From Limnochordia bacterium (lineage in GTDB: Bacteria; Bacillota; Limnochordia; DTU080): DNA of 64,000 nt. Shown piece after piece: positions 4,893-31,854 of the stretch (its first letter is position 1; every line of letters begins with the position of its first letter). The DNA lies in the NCBI GenBank assembly GCA_050951545.1, contig JBMNJG010000006.1, positions 128,001-192,000 on the forward strand. The letters are read 5' to 3'. The position numbers were made by a program, and so were the translations under genes. A model generated the notes under the pieces. It saw only the letters and a list, made by a program, of their open reading frames with translations, made no database searches and was not told the origin of the DNA.

Positions 4893-6308
4893 CTAGTTTA
4901 CTTCTAGGAATGTGCAGTTCTGCTCAGCCAATGCTTGGTGCAGAATCGGTACCGGCAGATCGCGAGCTGCCAGTTCCCTCTTCACGCACAGCGCGGCCGC
5001 TGTTCCCGCGGCCTGTCCAAACTGCATGCAGTTCACCATCACGCGTGTGGCTCCATGGGAGGCATGCGTAGTGGAGATGCAGCGCCCAGCCACCAACAGG
5101 TTGCTACGGTTCTTCGGCACCAGGCAACGGTAGGGCACCTGATAGCACACCGTGTCACGGGGCTGTCCGTCGCTGGTCCAATGGCCGCGCCGCCAAGAAC
5201 CATCCTCCAGCGCCTCGCGCATACTGCCGTCGATCTCCTTGAAGAGAATGCCCCGCCGGAGAGGATGATGGATGTCAATTGGATACGTCCCTTGAGCGAT
5301 CACGTCAGGGAAGCGAACTCCCTCAAGGACCTCTTCCTCTTGTAGCACGTGCTCACCGACAATGCGTCGTGTCTCACGGATGCCAATCTGCGAAGCGATG
5401 TCGACGACATACGCGTCTTCGAAGCCGGGGACGTGTGTCCGCAGCTGTGTCAGGACCCACTGCAGCTGGCGCCGCCCCTCCATTTCGGCTCGGGTAAGAC
5501 TCCAACCATCCGAACCGTCGACTTCCGTGACACGTACACCAGCCAGCATCAGCTCGTCTTCTCGGAACAGATTCGGAGCGCTCCATAGGAAGTTGGGGTA
5601 CTCCTGGTCGTTGTAATCCATACGTTTGTTGAGAGCCTTGGCCACCAGGCCCTTCTGGAACCCCTCACGCTGGGCGCGCTCTACATCGATCCCACCTACC
5701 CGGAAGCACAGCGAAGGGGGCTGCATGAGTCCTTGCGCATCACCCTTTTTGCACGGCACACCTGCGCGAGCGGCGACATCTGCATCACCAGTAGCGTCAA
5801 TGATGAAGCGAGCACGGATCGCTTGGCGACCAGACTTGTTCTGGATGATCACCGTGTCAATGCGGCCATCGTCTAGCAGAACGTCGCTCGCCCACGTGTG
5901 CACAAGAGGTGTCACCTTGGCATCAAGAATCAACTCATCAAAGGCAAGCTTGGCCTGCTCTGTATCGATGGTGAAGTAACCCCGTCCATCGGGCCGGGAA
6001 TTGCGCACAGCCTCGCGACGAGCAAGCCGCTCAACGAGCTCTTCGGGCAGGCCCCGAATCACCTGCGTCTCATAATCCATGCCATAGAGCTTATGCCAGA
6101 TGACAACCAGACCCGCTGTGGCCATGCCACCAAAGAAACCATGCCGCTCAACGAGCATGACGTCGGCACCGAGCCTTGCTGCTGCAACAGCGGCACATAC
6201 ACCCGCAGGACCACCCCCACACACCAACACATCGACCTCATGAACGACTGGTATTCGTTCCGCTGGCACAACCACAGATAAACCCGCTGAATTCACTGTC
6301 ATTCCCAC
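4893..6308 (-). CDS. FAD-dependent oxidoreductase (FAD_oxidored family)
   Basis: DVLVCGGGPAG, IDATGDAD, GIRETRRIVG, YQVPYRCLVP, LVAGRCIS, GQAAGTAA. Confidence 0.9.
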   Translation of the reverse strand: MGMTVNSAGLSVVVPAERIPVVHEVDVLVCGGGPAGVCAAVAAARLGADVMLVERHGFFGGMATAGLVVIWHKLYGMDYETQVIRGLPEELVERLARREAVRNSRPDGRGYFTIDTEQAKLAFDELILDAKVTPLVHTWASDVLLDDGRIDTVIIQNKSGRQAIRARFIIDATGDADVAARAGVPCKKGDAQGLMQPPSLCFRVGGIDVERAQREGFQKGLVAKALNKRMDYNDQEYPNFLWSAPNLFREDELMLAGVRVTEVDGSDGWSLTRAEMEGRRQLQWVLTQLRTHVPGFEDAYVVDIASQIGIRETRRIVGEHVLQEEEVLEGVRFPDVIAQGTYPIDIHHPLRRGILFKEIDGSMREALEDGSWRRGHWTSDGQPRDTVCYQVPYRCLVPKNRSNLLVAGRCISTTHASHGATRVMVNCMQFGQAAGTAAALCVKRELAARDLPVPILHQALAEQNCTFLEVN

Positions 6309-6531
6309 TCTCCATCCCAGATTCGGTCGCCTATGCTATGCTCTGACACTGTGGTCAGCACGCTACCATCGCTGATACCGTACACAATCAACGAACTATC
6401 GGAACCGGGCAGACGAATGCTGGCTATCTCATTTGCACAGCCAGCATTGCGTAGACTTGAGGTGTTGTTGATCGGCAGCACGGCCTCCTAGCAGCAGCCT
6501 TCACTGACATGGTGCCTTTGAGTGGAATGCC

Positions 6532-7827
6532 CTACGTGGGCGATTCTTGGACAAGGGCCACTGCTTCATCAGCGACAGCGGCACCTACATTGGCAGAGTA
6601 GTGTGGACGCCCCGTGAGTCCCGGTACAGTTATGGCTGCATATCCCCTTCGCTCATAGTCACTGGGGTCAGGGATATAGCCCCAGAAATCGTTGCTGTAG
6701 CCCACCACCCATAGGTTGTCTCCCAGCGTCCGCTGGCGAATCTCCTGCGCCACCGCGGAAAACATCTCAGCACCATGGAACAGAATGCGCAATGGCCCAA
6801 GCTGGATACACTGGATCTCGCTAGACCACCCTGCGGGAACTGGCTTCCCATAGTAATCCTGCCTCCATTGGGCAAGGACCTCCGACCAGAAGCGCTTGGC
6901 TCCCTGCGTCGCCACTGTTGGGTTCCTATGGAAAGCCTCCTCAGACTTCTGCAGAGTGTCTTTCATCTGACTCTCTGTCATCACACTCACATCCACGGGT
7001 AGCGAGATCAGACGAGACGAAGAGGCCACACTGGGAGCGTCCAGGACTTGGCGCTTGGCCCATAGCTGCATGACGCCACCCGCTACGGCACTGCCCACAG
7101 CTGCGGCCCGATCTTCATGTGGCATGGGCTGTGGAAGGGGTGCTGGGTTTAGGTCGCCGCAAGCCCCCTGCAGATAAAGCACTGGCACATCTGGCCATTG
7201 CCTCTTCAGGCAGTCTCTCATCTCTCCAACCCAATCAGCGGAAGCATGCGTGTGTTCGCCCCTGAAAACCACAGCATGACAGGAGAACCTCGTGAGGATG
7301 CCTGCCAGGGCGCCTGAAGACTCGTGGACGAACAGGCACTGCTGGACATCGTCAATGGGGCCGCCCGAACGCGCTCGATTGAAGGCGACTCCAGGTAGTG
7401 TCCCGCTTGCTGCAGAAAGCACTGCTGGGCGTAGCCTCTGCCATGCTAGTAGCCCAACCTGCACCAAGCGGCGTTCAAAGAACGATACGTATTCCGGAGA
7501 CACCTCACCGCAACCGCGTAGGAAGAAGGTCGCTGGTCCACAATGGGTGTGGGTGGCGCACAAGGCTATAGCGCTTGTCGGTAGCCCCGTCGCGTGGCTC
7601 AGCTCAGTGCGCACCCTATTGGCGGAGTCGCGGTCATAGCCGCATACATCTGCACTGATAATCAACGCTCCGCACTGTCCTACACGAAAGGCGGCGGCTT
7701 GAGCGAGTAGGAACGAGTGTACATTGTCAGTTTTTCGTCCTAGGTAAAACCCGTACCCTGATAGCTCAACTCCCATCCAAGGAGTGATGTCAATGTGGGC
7801 GAACCCGGCTTGCCATTCGGACGACAC
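6532..7827 (-). CDS. Neutral/alkaline ceramidase-like amidohydrolase (second paralog)
   Basis: AGFAHIDITP..LSGY, ATHTHCGP, FSCH, LQGACGDLNP, GYSNDFWGYIP. Confidence 0.75.
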   Translation of the reverse strand: MSSEWQAGFAHIDITPWMGVELSGYGFYLGRKTDNVHSFLLAQAAAFRVGQCGALIISADVCGYDRDSANRVRTELSHATGLPTSAIALCATHTHCGPATFFLRGCGEVSPEYVSFFERRLVQVGLLAWQRLRPAVLSAASGTLPGVAFNRARSGGPIDDVQQCLFVHESSGALAGILTRFSCHAVVFRGEHTHASADWVGEMRDCLKRQWPDVPVLYLQGACGDLNPAPLPQPMPHEDRAAAVGSAVAGGVMQLWAKRQVLDAPSVASSSRLISLPVDVSVMTESQMKDTLQKSEEAFHRNPTVATQGAKRFWSEVLAQWRQDYYGKPVPAGWSSEIQCIQLGPLRILFHGAEMFSAVAQEIRQRTLGDNLWVVGYSNDFWGYIPDPSDYERRGYAAITVPGLTGRPHYSANVGAAVADEAVALVQESPT

Positions 7828-12851: not shown

Positions 12852-12950
12852 GCATCGGTCGCTTTCTACCAAATCACGGGATGTAACCGGCCTGTGCACC
12901 GACCCGCCACGGTGATCCCGCGCCAACGAGTGCCTTGTCTACACAGATGC
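12852..12950 (-). repeat. Left diverged inverted repeat of the HTH-nuclease element
   Basis: Its reverse complement (gcatctgtgtagaca...gtgcacaggccggttacatcccgtgatttggtagaaagcgaccgatgc) aligns with 14849-14959 (gcatctgggtaggaca...gtgcacacaccggttacatcacccaattcggcaagagacggccgatgc). Confidence 0.65.
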
Positions 12951-13045
12951 CGTGCGCACCTTGCCGTGGTGCTAGCTTCAGTGAAGCAGATAGGGCTGCG
13001 CTAGCTCACAGTGGGCTCATGCCGATTCTCGTCATGAGTCAAGTG

Positions 13046-13372
13046 GGGGTCGGTTACATCGCCCAAATCGGCAAGAAGGGGGCGATGCTCACTGGTTTCA
13101 CTTCCGTCAGTCCCGCACCCGGCTGGTGAGTCGGGGCCCGGGGTCGGTTACATCGCCCAAATCGGCAAGAAGGGGGCGATGCTCACTGGTTTCACTTCCG
13201 TCAGTCCCGCACCCGGCTGGTGAGTCGGGGCCCGGGGTCGGTTACATCGCCCAAATCGGCAAGAAAGGGGCGATGCTCACTGGTTTCACTTCCGTCAGTC
13301 CCGGACCCGGCTGGTGAGTCGGGGCCCGGGGTCGGTTACATCACCCAAATCGGCAAGAAGGGGGCGATGCTC
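13046..13372 (+). repeat. Tandem repeat, 94-bp unit, about 3.5 copies
   Basis: ggggtcggttacatcgcccaaatcggcaagaagggggcgatgctc... units start at 13046, 13140, 13234 and 13328 and are near-identical. Confidence 0.95.
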
Positions 13373-13658
13373 CAGTTTCATCTTCGATCACAGGAGGCCG
13401 ACCAGGCGACGAGGCAAGTTCTGGGCAAGGCAAGATGGCTATTGAGCGGAACATTGTGATTTCGAGGCGGTTACAGCCGGAAGCGGGGCGCCCGTTGGCG
13501 CACCACGGGTCTGCTATTGTCACGACTTGTGCCGAGGGCACCTGGCGAGGGCATAGGGGCACCCGCTCTAGCGAGCGGCAGCGAGAGGTTGCTGAGACCC
13601 CCATTGGTGAAGGGGGACAGATGATTCGAGGCTATGGCGCACTCTTGACTGTCGTTGG

Positions 13659-14688
13659 CTATTCGTTGGCGGCGTCACTGGTGGGCGCCCAGCCACCCTT
13701 AGCCGTCTCGCGGTAGAATCGACTCCTCAGATCGAGGTACCTGAGGAGTTTCTTGTTAAGGTCGCTTCGCAACGGCAGCAGTTGGCCAGCCTTGAACTTC
13801 ATGGTGAGCCAGGACAGGTCCTTGGCATGGATCACAACCAACGTGACGTTGTTCTTCTCACACAATTCACGCTTGGTCTTGTCACGTTCCATCTGCTTAG
13901 CCACCACGTCAGCCGAGAACCGTTTGGTAGGGGTGTAGTGTTGTGGCCCGTTAAACTCAAAAGCCACCGCCTCGAGGTCATAGTGGCGGTCGAGCTCCAG
14001 TAACATGCCAGTAGCCGGGTTGACGAGAAAACGGGGAGACGCGTTGTCCTTATGGTCATCGGAGTCGAAAATAGCCGATAGGTATTCCTGCATCAAGGCC
14101 TGTCCGAAGAACTCAGCCTCGTCGAGTCGCTGCTGCGCCGCTAGCAGTTCATCCATGTACTTGCGGGCGACCGGGTTACAGAGGCTGAAGTAAATGGGAG
14201 CCTGCTTGTGCTCTTGCTGCATCTCCAGCCAGCCCAGCTTCGCCAGTTGTCGAGCGGCCCGCTTGACCGTCTTGGCGTCTAGACTCATCATCCGGGACAC
14301 AGATGCATATGTGAACACGCCCTGCAGATTACGGTAATCCGAGCGTGGCCTGCAGTGCACCATAGACCACCTTGGCCTGAGCACTGACCTCCGTGGCGAT
14401 GATCAGCTCAGTAGGCATGACCACCCTTGGCCCCGACAGCTCTCTTGCTGGGGCCTGGTTGACGCCTGTGGGCAGATTGTACCAGCCCTCAGTGGTTAGC
14501 TTTGCCGTAGCCTTGCGGACGGTGGGTCGGGACAAACCGGTACGAGCAGCCAAGCGAGTGGGCGACAGACGAGCTCGCTGCCCCAATTCAGCGTCGAGTG
14601 TGAGGGCCAGCCAGACTACCTTATCCGTCGCTCTTAACTGGCTAGTGAGCAGCAACGAGATCGGCACGCGAACCTCTTCGATATCCAA
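13659..14688 (-). pseudogene. Tandem HTH + Vsr/DUF559-like PD-(D/E)XK endonuclease gene (~342 aa) split by a +1 frameshift near 14341
   Basis: GGAGGTG RBS + TTG 14688; HTH SPTRLAARTGLSRPTVRKA; after the frame change a second HTH (TYASVSRMMSLDAKTVKRA), then LELDRHY..AFEFNGPQHY..QMERDKTKRELCEKNNVTLVVI. Confidence 0.7.
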
Positions 14689-14730
14689 GGGTGCCACCTC
14701 CAGCCAGAATGTCTGTTCGATGCACACCCT

Positions 14731-14756
14731 TTCGACGTACGTCAGTAAGGTTCCTT
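14731..14756 (-). promoter_or_regulatory. Putative sigma-H-type promoter of the nuclease gene
   Basis: Minus strand AAGGA-N18-GAA (gaaggaaccttactgacgtacgtcgaaa), resembling the Bacillus SigH consensus AGGA-N17/18-GAAT. Confidence 0.35.
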
Positions 14757-14848
14757 CATCAAAAGGTCGATTCAGACAAAACCAGAGGCGGCGTGCACCC
14801 AGCTCTTGAAAGCGAGGCGCGATGGCACGTTTTCCGGTCGTGATGGGC

Positions 14849-14959
14849 GCATCTGGGTAGGACAGTGCTAGCCCGCCGCGGTGACCAGTGCCGTCCTGCC
14901 AAAGCAGACCCGTGCACACACCGGTTACATCACCCAATTCGGCAAGAGACGGCCGATGC
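14849..14959 (+). repeat. Right diverged inverted repeat; its last ~40 bp match the 94-bp tandem unit in direct orientation
   Basis: cggttacatcacccaattcggcaagagacggccgatgctc vs tandem unit cggttacatcacccaaatcggcaagaagggggcgatgctc. Confidence 0.7.
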
Positions 14960-14969
14960 TCGCCCGACC

Positions 14970-16067
14970 CTACGGACGGCTCCCCGCCCCGAACACTTGC
15001 AGATGCCGGGGCCGCACAAAGACCGCCTCGCCTATCTTGAGCCCTAGACGGCGATAGTGTTCCTTGGTCAGCCGGGCCTCCAACACCTCGCCTGTCGTCT
15101 GGCGGCGCAAATCGACGTGCACCACCGGACCCACGCATTGCACGTGTTGCACCACAACCTCCAAGGCATCCCCTGCTGCCTCTCGCCGGAGCTCCATATC
15201 GTGAGGGCGCACATAGCCGACTGCCTTTCTCTCTAGGGCGACCTCTCTGAGACTGTCACCGAACTCCCCCTGCTGTCCGTTGAACGCTCCTACATCACCC
15301 GCGTCCCAGCAGAAACATCCCTTGTCGACGCGACCGTGAAACAGGTTTACACTGCCCAGAAAGCGGCATACAAAGGGATTCGCCGGATGCTCATACACCT
15401 GTTCGGGCGAGCCAATCTGCTCAATGCGGCCTTCATTCATAATCACCACGCGATCTGCCACCTCAAGAGCTTCCTCCTGGTCATGTGTAACAAACAGGCT
15501 GGTGATCTGGATCTCATCATGTAGGCGACGTAGCCAACGTCGCAACTCCTGACGCACAGTGGCATCCAACGCCCCAAAGGGCTCATCTAATAAGAGCACC
15601 CGGGGTTCGATCGCTAAGGCTCGGGCCAGGGCGACTCGCTGGCGCTGTCCGCCGGAAAGCTGCCACGGGTAACGTTTTGCCATTCCCTCCAGCTGTACCA
15701 ACTGCAGGAGGCTGTTTACCCGTTGGTTTATCTCGTCCTGCGAGGGTCGGTGTGGGCGTGGTCTCACCCGCAGTCCAAAGGCCACATTCTCAAAGACGCT
15801 CATGTGGCGAAAGAGCGCGTAGTGCTGAAAGACGAAGCCCACGCGGCGCTCGCGAGCACTGCGCAGAGTGGCGTCTCGTCCGTCAAACAGAAGAGAGCCA
15901 GAGTCTGGGCTCTCCAGGCCAGCGATAATGCGCAACAACGTGGTCTTTCCCGAGCCCGAGGGACCTAGCAAAGCTACTAGCTCCCCTAAGGGTACCCGCA
16001 TACTTACGTCGTCCAAGGCGGCAAAGCAGCCAAAGCGCTTCGAAATACTGCATACCTCGATGCTCAC
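14970..16067 (-). CDS. cysA: Sulfate ABC transporter ATP-binding protein
   Basis: [38 protein letters not shown]-like C-terminus; operon context. Confidence 0.95.
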
Positions 16068-25832: not shown

Positions 25833-28800
25833 ATCCCGATTCTAGGTGTGTGGGGGAGCCTATGCACTGAGCTGGAACAATGGTCCGGTGTCGGGTCAAT
25901 CCCCGCGTGTGCGGGGGAGCCCGCAGACGCCAAGATTCGGCTCGGCAGTTATGGGGTCAATCCCCGCGTGTGCGGGGGAGCCCGAAATGGCAATGCAGCT
26001 GCAGAAGCAGGACGAGGTCAATCCCCGCGTGTGCGGGGGAGCCGAGTGAGACAAGAACAAAAGGAGGCGCCACAACGGTCAATCCCCGCGTGTGCGGGGG
26101 AGCCCTCCAGGCACAGAGTATGGATCATCACACCCGCGGTCAATCCCCGCGTGTGCGGGGGAGCCGTAGGGTTCGGGGGCGTGGGGAGGTATGGGACGGG
26201 TCAATCCCCGCGTGTGCGGGGGAGCCACCGAGTTCAGGACTGAACAGGAAACAGACAGAGGTCAATCCCCGCGTGTGCGGGGGAGCCCGCTGGTGATCAG
26301 GATGGGTTTGCCGATCACGCGGTCAATCCCCGCGTGTGCGGGGGAGCCGCACCCACCAACAGAGTCGAAGCCGTCCCATAGGGTCAATCCCCGCGTGTGC
26401 GGGGGAGCCACGTCACCGGTATAGGCGTCTATTACTCGCATCGGTCAATCCCCGCGTGTGCGGGGGAGCCATCCAGCGAGACGCAAAGAAGTATGGCCCG
26501 AGGGGTCAATCCCCGCGTGTGCGGGGGAGCCTACTTTGAGCCAACCCCAGTCATTCTAGATATGGGTCAATCCCCGCGTGTGCGGGGGAGCCTTCTCCCA
26601 GACGATAGCGTGCTTGCTTCGCCAGGGTCAATCCCCGCGTGTGCGGGGGAGCCGAGATCGACAAGCAGTACGCCATCCTGCAAGAGGGTCAATCCCCGCG
26701 TGTGCGGGGGAGCCTCGGCGACTACGACCCGGAAGTAGGAGCCTGGAGGTCAATCCCCGCGTGTGCGGGGGAGCCACGGTCGAGCCGTCAATCGTCACGG
26801 CGAAATAGGGTCAATCCCCGCGTGTGCGGGGGAGCCACATGCCCTTTTGGTACCTTGCGGCCATGGTGCGGTCAATCCCCGCGTGTGCGGGGGAGCCTTC
26901 GGGTTTATTCGAAACAACTCGGTGCGTAAGGGTCAATCCCCGCGTGTGCGGGGGAGCCGTATATCACCGAGCCTACGGTTCGAGCATAAGCGGTCAATCC
27001 CCGCGTGTGCGGGGGAGCCTTGGGTATGGGCAGTTGTTTCGTGGCCTTCAAGGGTCAATCCCCGCGTGTGCGGGGGAGCCTTACGCTGGCGTTGGCCAAC
27101 AGCAGAACAGAGAGGTCAATCCCCGCGTGTGCGGGGGAGCCAGGCCTGGAACCTCCCAAGGGTAATGCGGCTGAGGTCAATCCCCGCGTGTGCGGGGGAG
27201 CCGCTCGTACTTCCGCCCCTCACAGCGGAAACACCGGTCAATCCCCGCGTGTGCGGGGGAGCCGGCTGGTATAGCGACGGGTCATACCGATCCTGGGGTC
27301 AATCCCCGCGTGTGCGGGGGAGCCCCAAGCAGGGCATCACCATACACCCCAGCGTGAGGCCAATCCCCGCGTGTGCGGGGGAGCCGGTCCTCACACTAAC
27401 GCCGACCAGCATAACGGAGGTCAATCCCCGCGTGTGCGGGGGAGCCGTAACGATCGACGGCTCGACCGTGCGTCTCACAGGTCAATCCCCGCGTGTGCGG
27501 GGGAGCCATCTAAGGGATTTGGGGTGCGCGCTCGCTCACGGGTCAATCCCCGCGTGTGCGGGGGAGCCGGCCTTTTAGCTGGTGTTTTGTTCCCGCATAT
27601 GGGTCAATCCCCGCGTGTGCGGGGGGAGCCGCTAGCAGGCACGGCGCGTTCATTGTCCGGACGACGTAGGCGGTCAATCCCCGCGTGTGCGGGGGAGCCA
27701 GCCCCTTGGCGCGCAGATAGGCAAACAACTCCGGTCAATCCCCGCGTGTGCGGGGGAGCCGTGGAGTGATGGCAAGGCACGAGACAAGTAGCGGGTCAAT
27801 CCCCGCGTGTGCGGGGGAGCCTGCCGCGAGTACGAGGCCGACGACTGTGAGGCAGGTCAATCCCCGCGTGTGCGGGGGAGCCCGGGAAGCGATACTCGGA
27901 AATAGCGGTCCCACCGGTCAATCCCCGCGTGTGCGGGGGAGCCCACACCCAGTACGTAGGCCCGCACAAAGTACAGGGTCAATCCCCGCGTGTGCGGGGG
28001 AGCCCACGCTTTACGATCGACACGGAGACAGACAGATGGTCAATCCCCGCGTGTGCGGGGGAGCCTATAGTCGGTGCCCTGGTCGGTAGCACCTGTGAGG
28101 TCAATCCCCGCGTGTGCGGGGGAGCCTGTGATGGAAGCTGATAGAGTGCAAGTGCCCAGGGTCAATCCCCGCGTGTGCGGGGGAGCCATGCTTCGTTCTG
28201 CGAGTGCTTCGCCTATCACAGGTCAATCCCCGCGTGTGCGGGGGAGCCCCCCAGATCACGCGCTCTGCAGGTACAGCAGCCGGTCAATCCCCGCGTGTGC
28301 GGGGGAGCCGCAGGACAAGCCTAGCCAAGGGGATCGGCATCGGGTCAATCCCCGCGTGTGCGGGGGAGCCATACTCCAAATGCCCCACCAGCGTGTCGAA
28401 GGCGGTCAATCCCCGCGTGTGCGGGGGAGCCCCATACCACGCGAGCCCCATCCAACCCAACGCGGGTCAATCCCCGCGTGTGCGGGGGAGCCTACAGAAC
28501 GAAGAGATAGAGTGCTGGCGCAACGGGTCAATCCCCGCGTGTGCGGGGGAGCCCAACGCGGGTGAGCTCATCAGCCCGAGCTGTGAGGTCAATCCCCGCG
28601 TGTGCGGGGGAGCCGCTTCCATCCACGTTGTACCAGCACCTGTTTGAGGTCAATCCCCGCGTGTGCGGGGGAGCCAAAAAAATCTGTCTCTCATCGCACT
28701 GGAAATATGGTCAATCCCCGCGTGTGCGGGGGAGCCCCTTCTGACCAAGCGCAGAACCTTGTATGCGCAGGTCAATCCCCGCGTGTGCGGGGGAGCCCGG

Positions 28801-31109
28801 CTACAACGTGACGTCGATGCCTACGCTTGGGGTCAATCCCCGCGTGTGCGGGGGAGCCTCCAGGTCACCGGCGGTGATGGCGAGGGGCCCAGGTCAATCC
28901 CCGCGTGTGCGGGGGAGCCTCCGCCATGCTCACCCCTCCAAATCGGGTATGAGGTCAATCCCCGCGTGTGCGGGGGAGCCACACGCATCATCTGGCTACG
29001 GCGGGTCTGCCGGGGTCAATCCCCGCGTGTGCGGGGGAGCCTTGTTTGAACTGAGCAGTTAGGTCTTTTATCTCGGTCAATCCCCGCGTGTGCGGGGGAG
29101 CCACATCTCCGGGACTGTTACGGGCGGTTGATATGGGTCAATCCCCGCGTGTGCGGGGGAGCCCCTACGGGAGGGGGCGGACGACGATGCTGAGCCGGTC
29201 AATCCCCGCGTGTGCGGGGGAGCCATGGTGAGCTTCACGGGCGAACTGTGGGCAGGAGGTCAATCCCCGCGTGTGCGGGGGAGCCCAGCGGGGACGGCAA
29301 CGCGTTCAGCATACGAGGGGTCAATCCCCGCGTGTGCGGGGGAGCCATGCCCAGTCGTCAACCAGCAGTTTTGCGGTGAGGTCAATCCCCGCGTGTGCGG
29401 GGGAGCCACCGCGTGGTGCCCCGGCGCATCCCCCATGTAGGGTCAATCCCCGCGTGTGCGGGGGAGCCCTACCCGATCCCGGAGCTGTGGGGCCTAGTGG
29501 GGGTCAATCCCCGCGTGTGCGGGGGAGCCGTTGATTTCCTGCGAGGCAACCTTGCCCATGGAGGTCAATCCCCGCGTGTGCGGGGGAGCCAGCTTCAATA
29601 CGAGCCATGCTCTGGGTGCGGGCGGTCAATCCCCGCGTGTGCGGGGGAGCCGCACCGTGACGCTATCCGAGAGCTTGGGACGCGGGTCAATCCCCGCGTG
29701 TGCGGGGGAGCCTACGCCTGCCCGCGCTCGATGATCCTCCGTAGGGGTCAATCCCCGCGTGTGCGGGGGAGCCATATACTTTTCACGCCAGGTGACAACG
29801 AACACCGGTCAATCCCCGCGTGTGCGGGGGAGCCACAACCGATCACGGTTACCTCGCGCATCCTGTTGGTCAATCCCCGCGTGTGCGGGGGAGCCCCGCC
29901 CAAGAACTTGCGAAGCACCTACATCAGCGGTCAATCCCCGCGTGTGCGGGGGAGCCGGGAACGCAAACGGCGTCTTACGCTGAAACTCCGGTCAATCCCC
30001 GCGTGTGCGGGGGAGCCGCCCCCTTTTAGTCTCGCCATAGCCTCGCGCAGGGTCAATCCCCGCGTGTGCGGGGGAGCCAAGAATCCATGAGAAAAGAAGC
30101 GCGGGAGCGAAGGTCAATCCCCGCGTGTGCGGGGGAGCCAACTAGCGGCATACTACGAGGAAGCGGACCAGGGGTCAATCCCCGCGTGTGCGGGGGAGCC
30201 GGAGATCATCCCGTACGCATGGCCTGGGGGATAGGTCAATCCCCGCGTGTGCGGGGGAGCCAGTACGCCTCTTCGAGTTCCAGTTTCGGCATCGGGTCAA
30301 TCCCCGCGTGTGCGGGGGAGCCGATCACCCCGATACACGGCACTATCCGTGATAGGGTCAATCCCCGCGTGTGCGGGGGAGCCTGGGGATAGGTCTGGAT
30401 CATGTGGGCCGGCACAGGTCAATCCCCGCGTGTGCGGGGGAGCCGATTGTCGGAACGAAAGATGTCGTGCTGAGCAGGGTCAATCCCCGCGTGTGCGGGG
30501 GAGCCCAAAATTAGTAGTATTCGCTGTACACAAGGAAGGGTCAATCCCCGCGTGTGCGGGGGAGCCTTCCGGTCCAGGCCCGACAGCCGCCGTGCAGGAG
30601 GTCAATCCCCGCGTGTGCGGGGGAGCCACGATCCCGATCGCGGGGTACTCCGTCAGCATGGGTCAATCCCCGCGTGTGCGGGGGAGCCTTCCAGGCATCC
30701 TCACGATGCCACCTCCTTGCGGGTCAATCCCCGCGTGTGCGGGGGAGCCGCCGCAGCCGCGTTGTAGCTGCGCCCCAATAACGGTCAATCCCCGCGTGTG
30801 CGGGGGAGCCCAGAATCAGGAACAGCTGTCATGGCCACTGTCGGTCAATCCCCGCGTGTGCGGGGGAGCCTACCACCAGAGGTATACGCAGCCATGGTGA
30901 CGAAGGTCAATCCCCGCGTGTGCGGGGGAGCCGTCCTCGATTTACCATGCTCAGCGCCGATGCGGGTCAATCCCCGCGTGTGCGGGGGAGCCTATCGTGA
31001 CGCCTGCTGCCAGAGTCGTGCAGGGTCAATCCCCGCGTGTGCGGGGGAGCCGTACACGCGCATAGTGAGGCACAGCCGTGGGGTCAATCCCCGCGTGTGC
31101 GGGGGAGCC
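25833..31109 (-). CRISPR. Type I-E-like CRISPR array: 86 repeats plus 1 degenerate trailer repeat, 86 spacers (mostly 33 nt)
   Basis: 28-bp repeat GGTCAATCCCCGCGTGTGCGGGGGAGCC (minus strand GGCTCCCCCGCACACGCGGGGATTGACC), 61-bp period, starts from 25894 to 31082; CCCCGC-N4-GCGGGG hairpin; degenerate copy ends at 25860; manual count. Confidence 0.98.
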
Positions 31110-31426: not shown

Positions 31427-31854
31427 GTGCCACGCCAGGTAGCCAGAGCGACCACGCGCAAGACACTGGTAATCTGCTCACGTTCGCTCAGGGTGGTGGT
31501 AAGAGTGCAGCGATGCGATCTTAGCAGAGCCCTTTTTGCGGACCGGAACCGTTTTCAGGGGCTCATTTCTCCCCCTAGGAGCACACTCTGCCGCCTCGAT
31601 AGCCCTTCTGGGGCTACCAGACAACACATAACCGAACCGTGTCGATGGTCCTTTCCCACTCAGCCGATGTCCGAGCGCAAGTCCGCCCAGGTTTCGTGAG
31701 GAACCCAGCGGCTGGTAAGCGTCTGGAGTTCGGTCTCCTCTATTACCTGCACGACATTGCCATTGAGTATAATGGGTCGGAACACTACCTCGTCGCAGAG
31801 CAGCATTCAGCTGAGCAGGTCCACAAGCAGCACAGGTCCACAGGCGGCAGATGA
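31427..31854 (+). pseudogene. Decayed, truncated paralog of the HTH-endonuclease gene
   Basis: VRPGFVRNPAAGKRLEFGLLYYLHDIAIEYNGSEHYLVAEQHSAEQVHKQ aligns without gaps to ASPRFLVNPATGMLLELDRHYDLEAVAFEFNGPQHYTPTKRFSADVVAKQ; 5' boundary uncertain. Confidence 0.7.

Follow-up and report, generated by a model that had tools for sequence, protein, structure and literature searches.

A dispersed winged-helix and Vsr-type nuclease gene with its own upstream repeat module in a Limnochordia genome: possibly a one-sided mobile element

The window analysed here is a stretch of 64,000 nucleotides from a Limnochordia bacterium (contig JBMNJG010000006.1), and all coordinates refer to it. On its minus strand, at 13659..14688, lies a gene for a protein of ~342 amino acids with two winged helices followed by a Vsr-like nuclease domain. 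The probable start is a TTG at 14688 behind a ribosome-binding site, the stop is at 13659 and the GC3 of the gene is host-like. A single extra base near 14340-14343 breaks the reading frame into two parts. P0001, a natural relative with an uninterrupted gene (its cluster holds 45 near-identical variants), is 98% identical to the window protein, and a relative of 58% identity comes from a Limnochordia assembly. At the frameshift point natural relatives read through in two ways, P0001 with ATP-DY and P0002 with ATL-DY, and it is therefore possible that the frameshift is an assembly error of mixed copies. It was also observed that P0001, P0002 and P0184, with coding parts 96–98% identical, differ from the window at 14707-14740, just upstream of the LexA-like box described below; since their promoter region is unlike that of the window, other copies or alleles exist. 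Close members are labelled MarR/DtxR-type regulators by their sources. As the sequence-only reading had noticed, the locus ends 10 bp from the stop codon of cysA (14970-14972; counted from 14959). Spore-germination genes in the window, together with the relative of 58% identity, indicate a spore-forming member of the Bacillota as host. An Rfam search of the window gave no match.

The two winged-helix domains (approximately 14175..14676, minus strand) are HTH_36-like, and the nuclease domain (13767..14114, minus strand) carries the motif ELDR...EFNGPQHY, which bears out the earlier description of two HTH modules and a nuclease motif in one gene. In the structure model of P0001 (pLDDT 89.7) residues 26-198, covering both winged helices, align to the Pi initiator over 163 aa (Z 8.3, rmsd 4.0), a score tied with that of many ordinary winged-helix proteins; the Foldseek match to RepE54 has a probability of 0.98 but an E-value of 0.04, and the best PHROG matches of the winged helices are phage replication initiators. 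The nuclease domain folded alone (pLDDT 93.7) has as its top three fold matches Vsr (Z 9.0), I-Bth0305I (Z 9.0, rmsd 2.8, 93 aa) and DUF559 (Z 8.2), which agrees with the earlier assignment to the Vsr/DUF559 type, not to a DDE, HUH, serine or tyrosine recombinase; TnsA matches at Z 6.9. The putative catalytic residues are Q221, D258, E269, N271, H275 and D294 in P0001 numbering, mapped to I-Bth0305I by their order and by fold range, without a superposition of atoms. Among 181 relatives E221 is found in 169, D258 in 180, E269 in 178, H275 in 175 and D294 in 176; the window copy has Q221 where these 169 have glutamate. Conservation is higher in the nuclease (0.61) than in the winged helices (0.48). 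By its modelled fold, the protein is predicted to be a nuclease of Vsr type with conserved active-site residues. Two winged helices and the Vsr fold account for it fully, and a strand-transfer domain is absent. Foldseek finds no match at E<=1e-3 with either model, PDB sequence searches yield weak HTH matches or none, NCBIfam gives nothing above cut-off and PADLOC nothing beyond HTH.

The gene is enclosed by two diverged inverted arms, which the sequence-only reading took for the ends of an element. The right arm (14849-14959) aligns to the reverse complement of 12852-12950 with 70 identities over 111/99 nt and a score of 83, whereas the maximum of 500 shuffles is 42; the arms are ~63–70% alike, and their proximal ~70 bp are still homologous when the end motif is removed (0/500 shuffles). 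At 13046..13372 lies a recent tandem amplification, 94 bp x3.5 and 98% identical, which is oriented like the right arm. That the array is built on the ~40-bp end motif proved correct, and only this end is held in common with the right arm: the score of the rest is reached by 42 of 500 shuffles. A 25-nt pattern of the end has five matches in the 64-kb window, all at the element locus, and none in 100 shuffles. The palindromic site CATC-N23-GATG is found in the left arm (12853-12883), four times in the array (13057, 13151, 13245 and 13339), there oriented as the upstream site, and in the right arm at 14928; elsewhere in the window there are four more matches, where ~2 are expected by chance. The spacer from array to stop codon (13373..13658) is without significant match in the window or in 80 loci of the family. 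The right arm is the cognate upstream module of the gene (~14849..14961), with the palindromic site at 14928-14958 and a third half-site at 14849; the left arm (12852..12950, minus strand) is a diverged, inverted, gene-less copy of it. Left arm and array are both more plausibly copies of this module that lack the gene. A target-site duplication is absent at the locus, as reported before: the single 5-bp match overlaps the motif itself.

The paralog remnant suspected near 31.6 kb is real. It lies at 31660..31830 on the plus strand (tblastn E 9e-8, 40% identity), and only part of the nuclease domain can be recognised in it. We also observed that it lies ~550 bp past an extended CRISPR array (25894-31109; period 61 bp), and that none of the 39 ORFs scanned is a cas gene; the repeat of this array is presumably type I-E-like. 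In another genome (L060, from ~11050, at least 2.4 kb downstream of the gene) ORF N-termini resemble CRISPR type III RAMP proteins by eye.

The family is large. A profile search with a cut-off of E<=1e-30 finds 394 representatives, and with one of 1e-10 it finds 1,769, of which the weaker ones (E to 1e-10) may share one domain only. A scan of GTDB, in which 103 of 144 pattern matches proved to be relatives, yielded 80 loci in 38 assemblies; because it used two peptide patterns, the count is a lower bound. Multiple copies, for which the sequence-only reading had proposed a search, are present in 19 of the 38 assemblies, with a maximum of eight in one; the empty sites sought along with them were not found among the 80 loci, whose copies are old and without close strains. 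On a quick tree of 71 rows the genome label changes 47 times, compared with at least 56 times in 500 shuffles, which means that copies cluster by genome, and one clade of six copies from a single genome has 97% support. All 20 pairs examined have dN/dS of 0.11–0.22, indicating purifying selection, and a frameshift is present in 4 of 80 main copies. The neighbours are unrelated housekeeping genes among which only large general families recur; after 3 of 121 were dropped from the survey, none of the remaining 118 is a transposase, integrase or methylase. This agrees with the earlier remark that there is no recognisable transposase. A known IS family was considered and rejected, there being no DDE, HUH, serine, tyrosine or DEDD domain in the protein or in these 118 neighbours. 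Targeting of tRNA genes was likewise rejected (0/60 loci scanned; 20 loci unscanned). No match was found in 72,556 plasmids, and a full-length match is absent from the plasmids and phages searched.

This does not mean that all copies have moved. The loci L070/L073 and L030/L034 are syntenic, so inherited in place, and L053/L057 have a common downstream flank only. There is no within-genome pair of full copies above ~91% identity; recent movement is therefore not directly seen, and assembly collapse could hide it. In addition, at 18 loci the family is represented by a shorter or incomplete form that matches one winged helix. Such forms were noticed at L056, L059, L063-L066, L068-L073, L075, L077, L079 and L080, and most of these group, with weak support, on one side of the midpoint-rooted tree. 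Members in assemblies labelled Mycobacterium leprae, Chloroflexota, Bacteroidota and Ignavibacteriales were seen at L010, L044, L066, L069 and L075; the contig of L010 is just 2.7 kb long and mis-binning is likely, so the range outside Bacillota is unproven. At L026 a second intact member lies 5 kb downstream (13277-14218); it is the sister on the tree, and the upstream DNA of the two does not align.

What the copies have in common beside the gene lies upstream of it. Within 450 bp upstream, a spaced inverted repeat with A-tracts is present at 20 of 73 loci and at 4 of 161 other genes. It should be noted that this operator scan is strict (a 12-bp inverted pair, A-tracts and a 12-40-nt gap), with a filter chosen after inspection of the data, and that inverted pairs without the A-tract filter are uninformative (43/73 vs 79/161). 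Upstream direct repeats occur at 21 of 67 loci, compared with 0–5 per control window, the controls being mostly coding DNA. Both counts uphold the proposed linkage of gene and repeat. Loci with too little flank were left out of each window count, and L034 (99% identical to L030) was excluded from the counts of promoters and LexA boxes, operators, gene-less modules and inverted downstream copies. The arms of the spaced repeat vary from copy to copy yet remain symmetrical, with extra half-sites nearby; in the eight-copy genome the half-sites are ~137 bp apart. Across 20 loci all 64 half-site matches are upstream (40 by construction), and the gene and the 900 bp past it are free of them; a half-site at the 3' end was tried and rejected (mean best mismatch 4.5 vs 4.9). 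Between module and gene the window has a LexA-box-like candidate site (14707..14718, minus strand) and a sigmaH-like candidate promoter, AGGA-N18-GAAA (14730..14756, minus strand), named for their likeness to the LexA and sigmaH consensus sequences. The sigmaH-like promoter is found at 20 of 76 loci (10/161 controls) and the LexA-like box at 17 of 77 (5/161 controls). A GTTACATCAC-like motif was observed before the promoter at L027, L028, L037, L038, L040, L043, L045, L049 and L061; it matches the arm of the window site, though it is turned the other way with respect to the gene. Operator and protein co-diverge weakly (Mantel rho 0.16, p 0.07, n 19), and a host factor could therefore bind the sites. 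A structured RNA was rejected, with covariation terms of -0.14 and +0.82 for the module of one subfamily; the array units, as DNA, fold no better than shuffles (z about 0).

Candidate ends of the unit can be seen in close pairs, in which common DNA starts at a half-site or close to it and stops 2-13 nt beyond the stop codon or, in two pairs, at a terminator-like hairpin. For example, L060 and L063, from two genomes and at dS 0.30, have different flanks and share the DNA from the half-site to 9 nt past the stop; these ends look real because neutral flanks should still align at this distance and do not. In older pairs (dS ~0.6) the boundaries may mark limits of selection instead of element ends. 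By a test that detects the left arm of the window at z 4.2, no more than 3 of 60 relatives have an inverted downstream copy, and two of the three are gappy, chance-like matches. A 55-bp repeat on both sides of L014 was rejected as a candidate, since it lies partly inside a host gene and is not operator. The inverted-repeat-bounded layout is local to the window, and as the layout of the family it had to be given up; the family unit is one-sided and consists of the upstream module, the sigmaH/LexA-like promoter and then the gene.

Around this unit the DNA is unstable. Gene-less modules lie 0.2-3 kb from the genes at L002, L060 and L063; in flanks generally they amount to about 0.01-0.03 per kb, partly by chance. 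Just downstream of the gene at L002 (7320-7500) a double operator without a gene was noticed, which belongs to a different subfamily present in that genome. The half-site is inside the duplicated unit at only 4 of the 8 loci having both features. At L012 (~5480-6660) a 3'-truncated, 94%-identical copy is followed, via short microhomology, by a 106-bp duplicate of host DNA and then by an intact copy; the duplicate matches 1350-1455, where an epimerase-like gene 5 kb upstream ends. P0002 and P0184 (>=96% identical to P0001) have kept the 5' part and have foreign tails, and they could be assembly chimeras; the Atlas reading of the P0002 tail as an ABC-ATPase end (0.79) is a lead only. The remnant in the window is without the 5' part, a polarity opposite to that of these two. 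The array and inverted arm of the window fit this class of duplicated and gene-less modules as by-products. Diverged 84-bp tandem arrays were also observed downstream of the gene at the syntenic locus L070/L073, and short simple tandem repeats near the gene at many loci.

Observed directly, then, are the anatomy and ends of the unit, the folds, the conserved active site, purifying selection, expansion within genomes to unrelated intergenic sites, and duplicated and gene-less modules. Scattered copies without a nearby transposase suggest an undescribed kind of mobile DNA, and we hold the chances to be even that the unit, ~1.2-1.6 kb of operator/origin module, sigmaH/LexA-type promoter and wHTH-wHTH-Vsr gene, is a one-sided, self-copying selfish element. 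A fuller version of this explanation is plausible, although we would lean slightly against it: that the element is autonomous, that its sole enzyme is the PD-(D/E)XK Vsr-type nuclease, steered by the initiator-like winged helices to the upstream origin, that copying is one-sided, by host repair and under stationary-phase/SOS control, and that diverging site specificity lets many paralogs coexist in the manner of plasmid incompatibility groups. As we infer it, the winged helices would bind the repeat and the nuclease would drive spread, much as first supposed. In such a cycle the winged helices would bind copy-specific half-sites and also repress the gene; in stationary phase or upon DNA damage the nuclease would nick or cut at or near the module; host replication and repair would copy the module through the gene; and the copy would be inserted at a new place through microhomology, or through homology with a gene-less module already there, leaving no target-site duplication. 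Abortive events would account for modules in tandem or without a gene and for 3'-truncated copies, and the window would be a frameshifted copy with such by-products, the array and the inverted arm, alongside. Against self-copying count the absence of empty sites and of target-site duplications, the syntenic pairs, the weak co-divergence and the presence of the operator at only 20 of 73 loci.

The same observations can be read otherwise. The main rival is that the gene encodes a nuclease with a toxic, addiction or anti-phage role that represses itself, comparable to Rpn or to a restriction gene under a controller; the operator would serve silencing only, and the gene would spread by ordinary recombination and horizontal transfer and be kept by selection. 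Purifying selection on all pairs tested, the few frameshifted main copies (just 4/80), stress-type promoters and the synteny of some copies speak for it, as does the description, in the part of the Rpn analysis used here, of Rpn genes as likewise patchy, multicopy and without terminal repeats or target duplications (PMC10400941). We nevertheless consider it unlikely, since antitoxin, methylase and defence-island neighbours are absent, PADLOC scores for eight proteins are weak and HTH-level, and the one conserved Met examined shows no codon bias for an internal ribosome-binding site; it would also leave unexplained the modules in tandem or without a gene, the presence of at least three half-sites and the six related copies scattered over one genome. 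Domestication is very improbable. The copies would then be paralogous stationary-phase/SOS regulators or repair nucleases of the host, with operators controlling host genes, to which the sigmaH- and LexA-like promoters, host-like GC3, purifying selection and gene-less intergenic operator pairs would be suited; the neighbourhood, however, is not conserved, expansions are genome-specific, the operator differs in nearly every copy and decayed copies occur.

Two further readings keep the element mobile. One-sided homing, in which the nuclease cuts beside an empty gene-less module and repair copies the gene in, with module homology on one side, draws on the EDxHD homing-endonuclease fold, on the existence of gene-less modules and on diverged modules in tandem ahead of genes. 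It is improbable, because gene-less modules are rare in flanks and look element-derived and because a conserved host target gene is absent; homing of the classical kind, one of the mechanisms first proposed, finds neither this nor an intron or intein. Least probable, and largely refuted for the family, is the layout first proposed, a cut-and-paste or REP-type element with terminal inverted repeats. The two ~100-bp modules of the window do face inward with their sites outermost, L080 has repeats on both sides, and TnsA is a transposition nuclease of the PD-(D/E)XK fold; but 57 of 60 relatives are without an inverted downstream copy, half-sites are missing from the gene, the next 900 bp (20 loci) and the 3' end, there is neither a target-site duplication nor a strand-transfer domain, the arms are only ~63–70% alike and the units fold no better than shuffles. 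The dispersal of a selfish type that had been supposed, multicopy, non-syntenic and in genome-specific clades, is supported by the data. Neither a single-copy, syntenic gene, nor repeats distributed independently of it, nor a match to a known IS family, the outcomes named beforehand as speaking against that view, was found in general, although some pairs are syntenic.

We regard the one-sided unit as new as a type of element, with a mechanism that we infer. A search of open-licence PMC and bioRxiv literature found no description of the family, and the part of a 2023 analysis used here states that no autonomous transposase of the PD-(D/E)XK fold is known (PMC10400941). If the element moves itself, it would bring new chemistry to mobile DNA and explain an unannotated multicopy family in Limnochordia and Symbiobacteria, and small site-specific nucleases would be available from its hundreds of variants, whose sites differ. 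If instead the toxic or defence explanation is true, this would be a new family of autoregulated toxin or defence nucleases, of known kind. In either case one protein of ~340 aa with clear catalytic residues and a predicted binding site per copy makes a compact test case.

Among known systems the EDxHD homing endonucleases come closest in the nuclease. For I-Bth0305I a set of acidic and histidine residues is described in the part of the source used (PMC3239194), and the family has the C-terminal nuclease fold, a matching E/D/N/H/D set and an N-terminal DNA-binding region; ORF194 of phage 0305phi8-36, annotated 'homing nuclease', matches it in sequence (hhalign 99%). Unlike I-Bth0305I, however, it has a winged-helix pair in place of NUMOD repeats, and unlike the EDxHD enzymes it is without an intron, intein or conserved target gene and has many dispersed chromosomal copies, each with its own upstream module. 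The Rep_3 initiators (Pi, RepE) and phage O/DnaD-like proteins resemble it in tandem winged helices, although ordinary winged-helix proteins score as well as Pi, and in an upstream inverted pair with half-sites; it differs from Rep_3 in its fused nuclease, its chromosomal location and the absence of a regular iteron array, and Rep_3 is not among the Pfam matches listed. The Rpn/YhgA (Transposase_31) genes, too, encode nucleases, stand alone, are patchy and multicopy and lack terminal repeats and target duplications; they form a dispersed PD-(D/E)XK family that is argued, in the part of the analysis used here, not to transpose (PMC10400941). The present family is of the Vsr subclass, has N-terminal DNA-binding domains and has 5' ends tied to a site, and neither the 17 families of P0001 nor the 25 (of 43) listed for 32 members include Transposase_31/PDDEXK_2.

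REP/RAYT systems likewise have repeat arrays beside a stand-alone gene, but here there is no HUH domain, the repeats are local and folding is not significant, and the REP/RAYT-like reading was accordingly dropped; an RNA-guided or type III toxin-antitoxin array was rejected as well, the units being identical and without spacers, covariation support or folding (z about 0). The MIGE elements of giant viruses are dispersed units of non-coding DNA plus an ORF without a classical transposase. This layout, by which they were compared and not by sequence, is the same, although MIGE are viral: in the part of the source used, PgV has 12 copies and CeV six (PMC4669402). In behaviour the family may also resemble one-ended transposons. 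Their chemistry differs, since our family is without the HUH domain, terminal hairpin and conserved tetranucleotide, and hydrolytic nicking would have to take their place. IS91/ISCR elements and Helitrons have a fixed origin end, make no target duplication and leave 3'-truncated copies. The unit described here may share these three features, and by this analogy the element may work like a one-ended replicative transposon.
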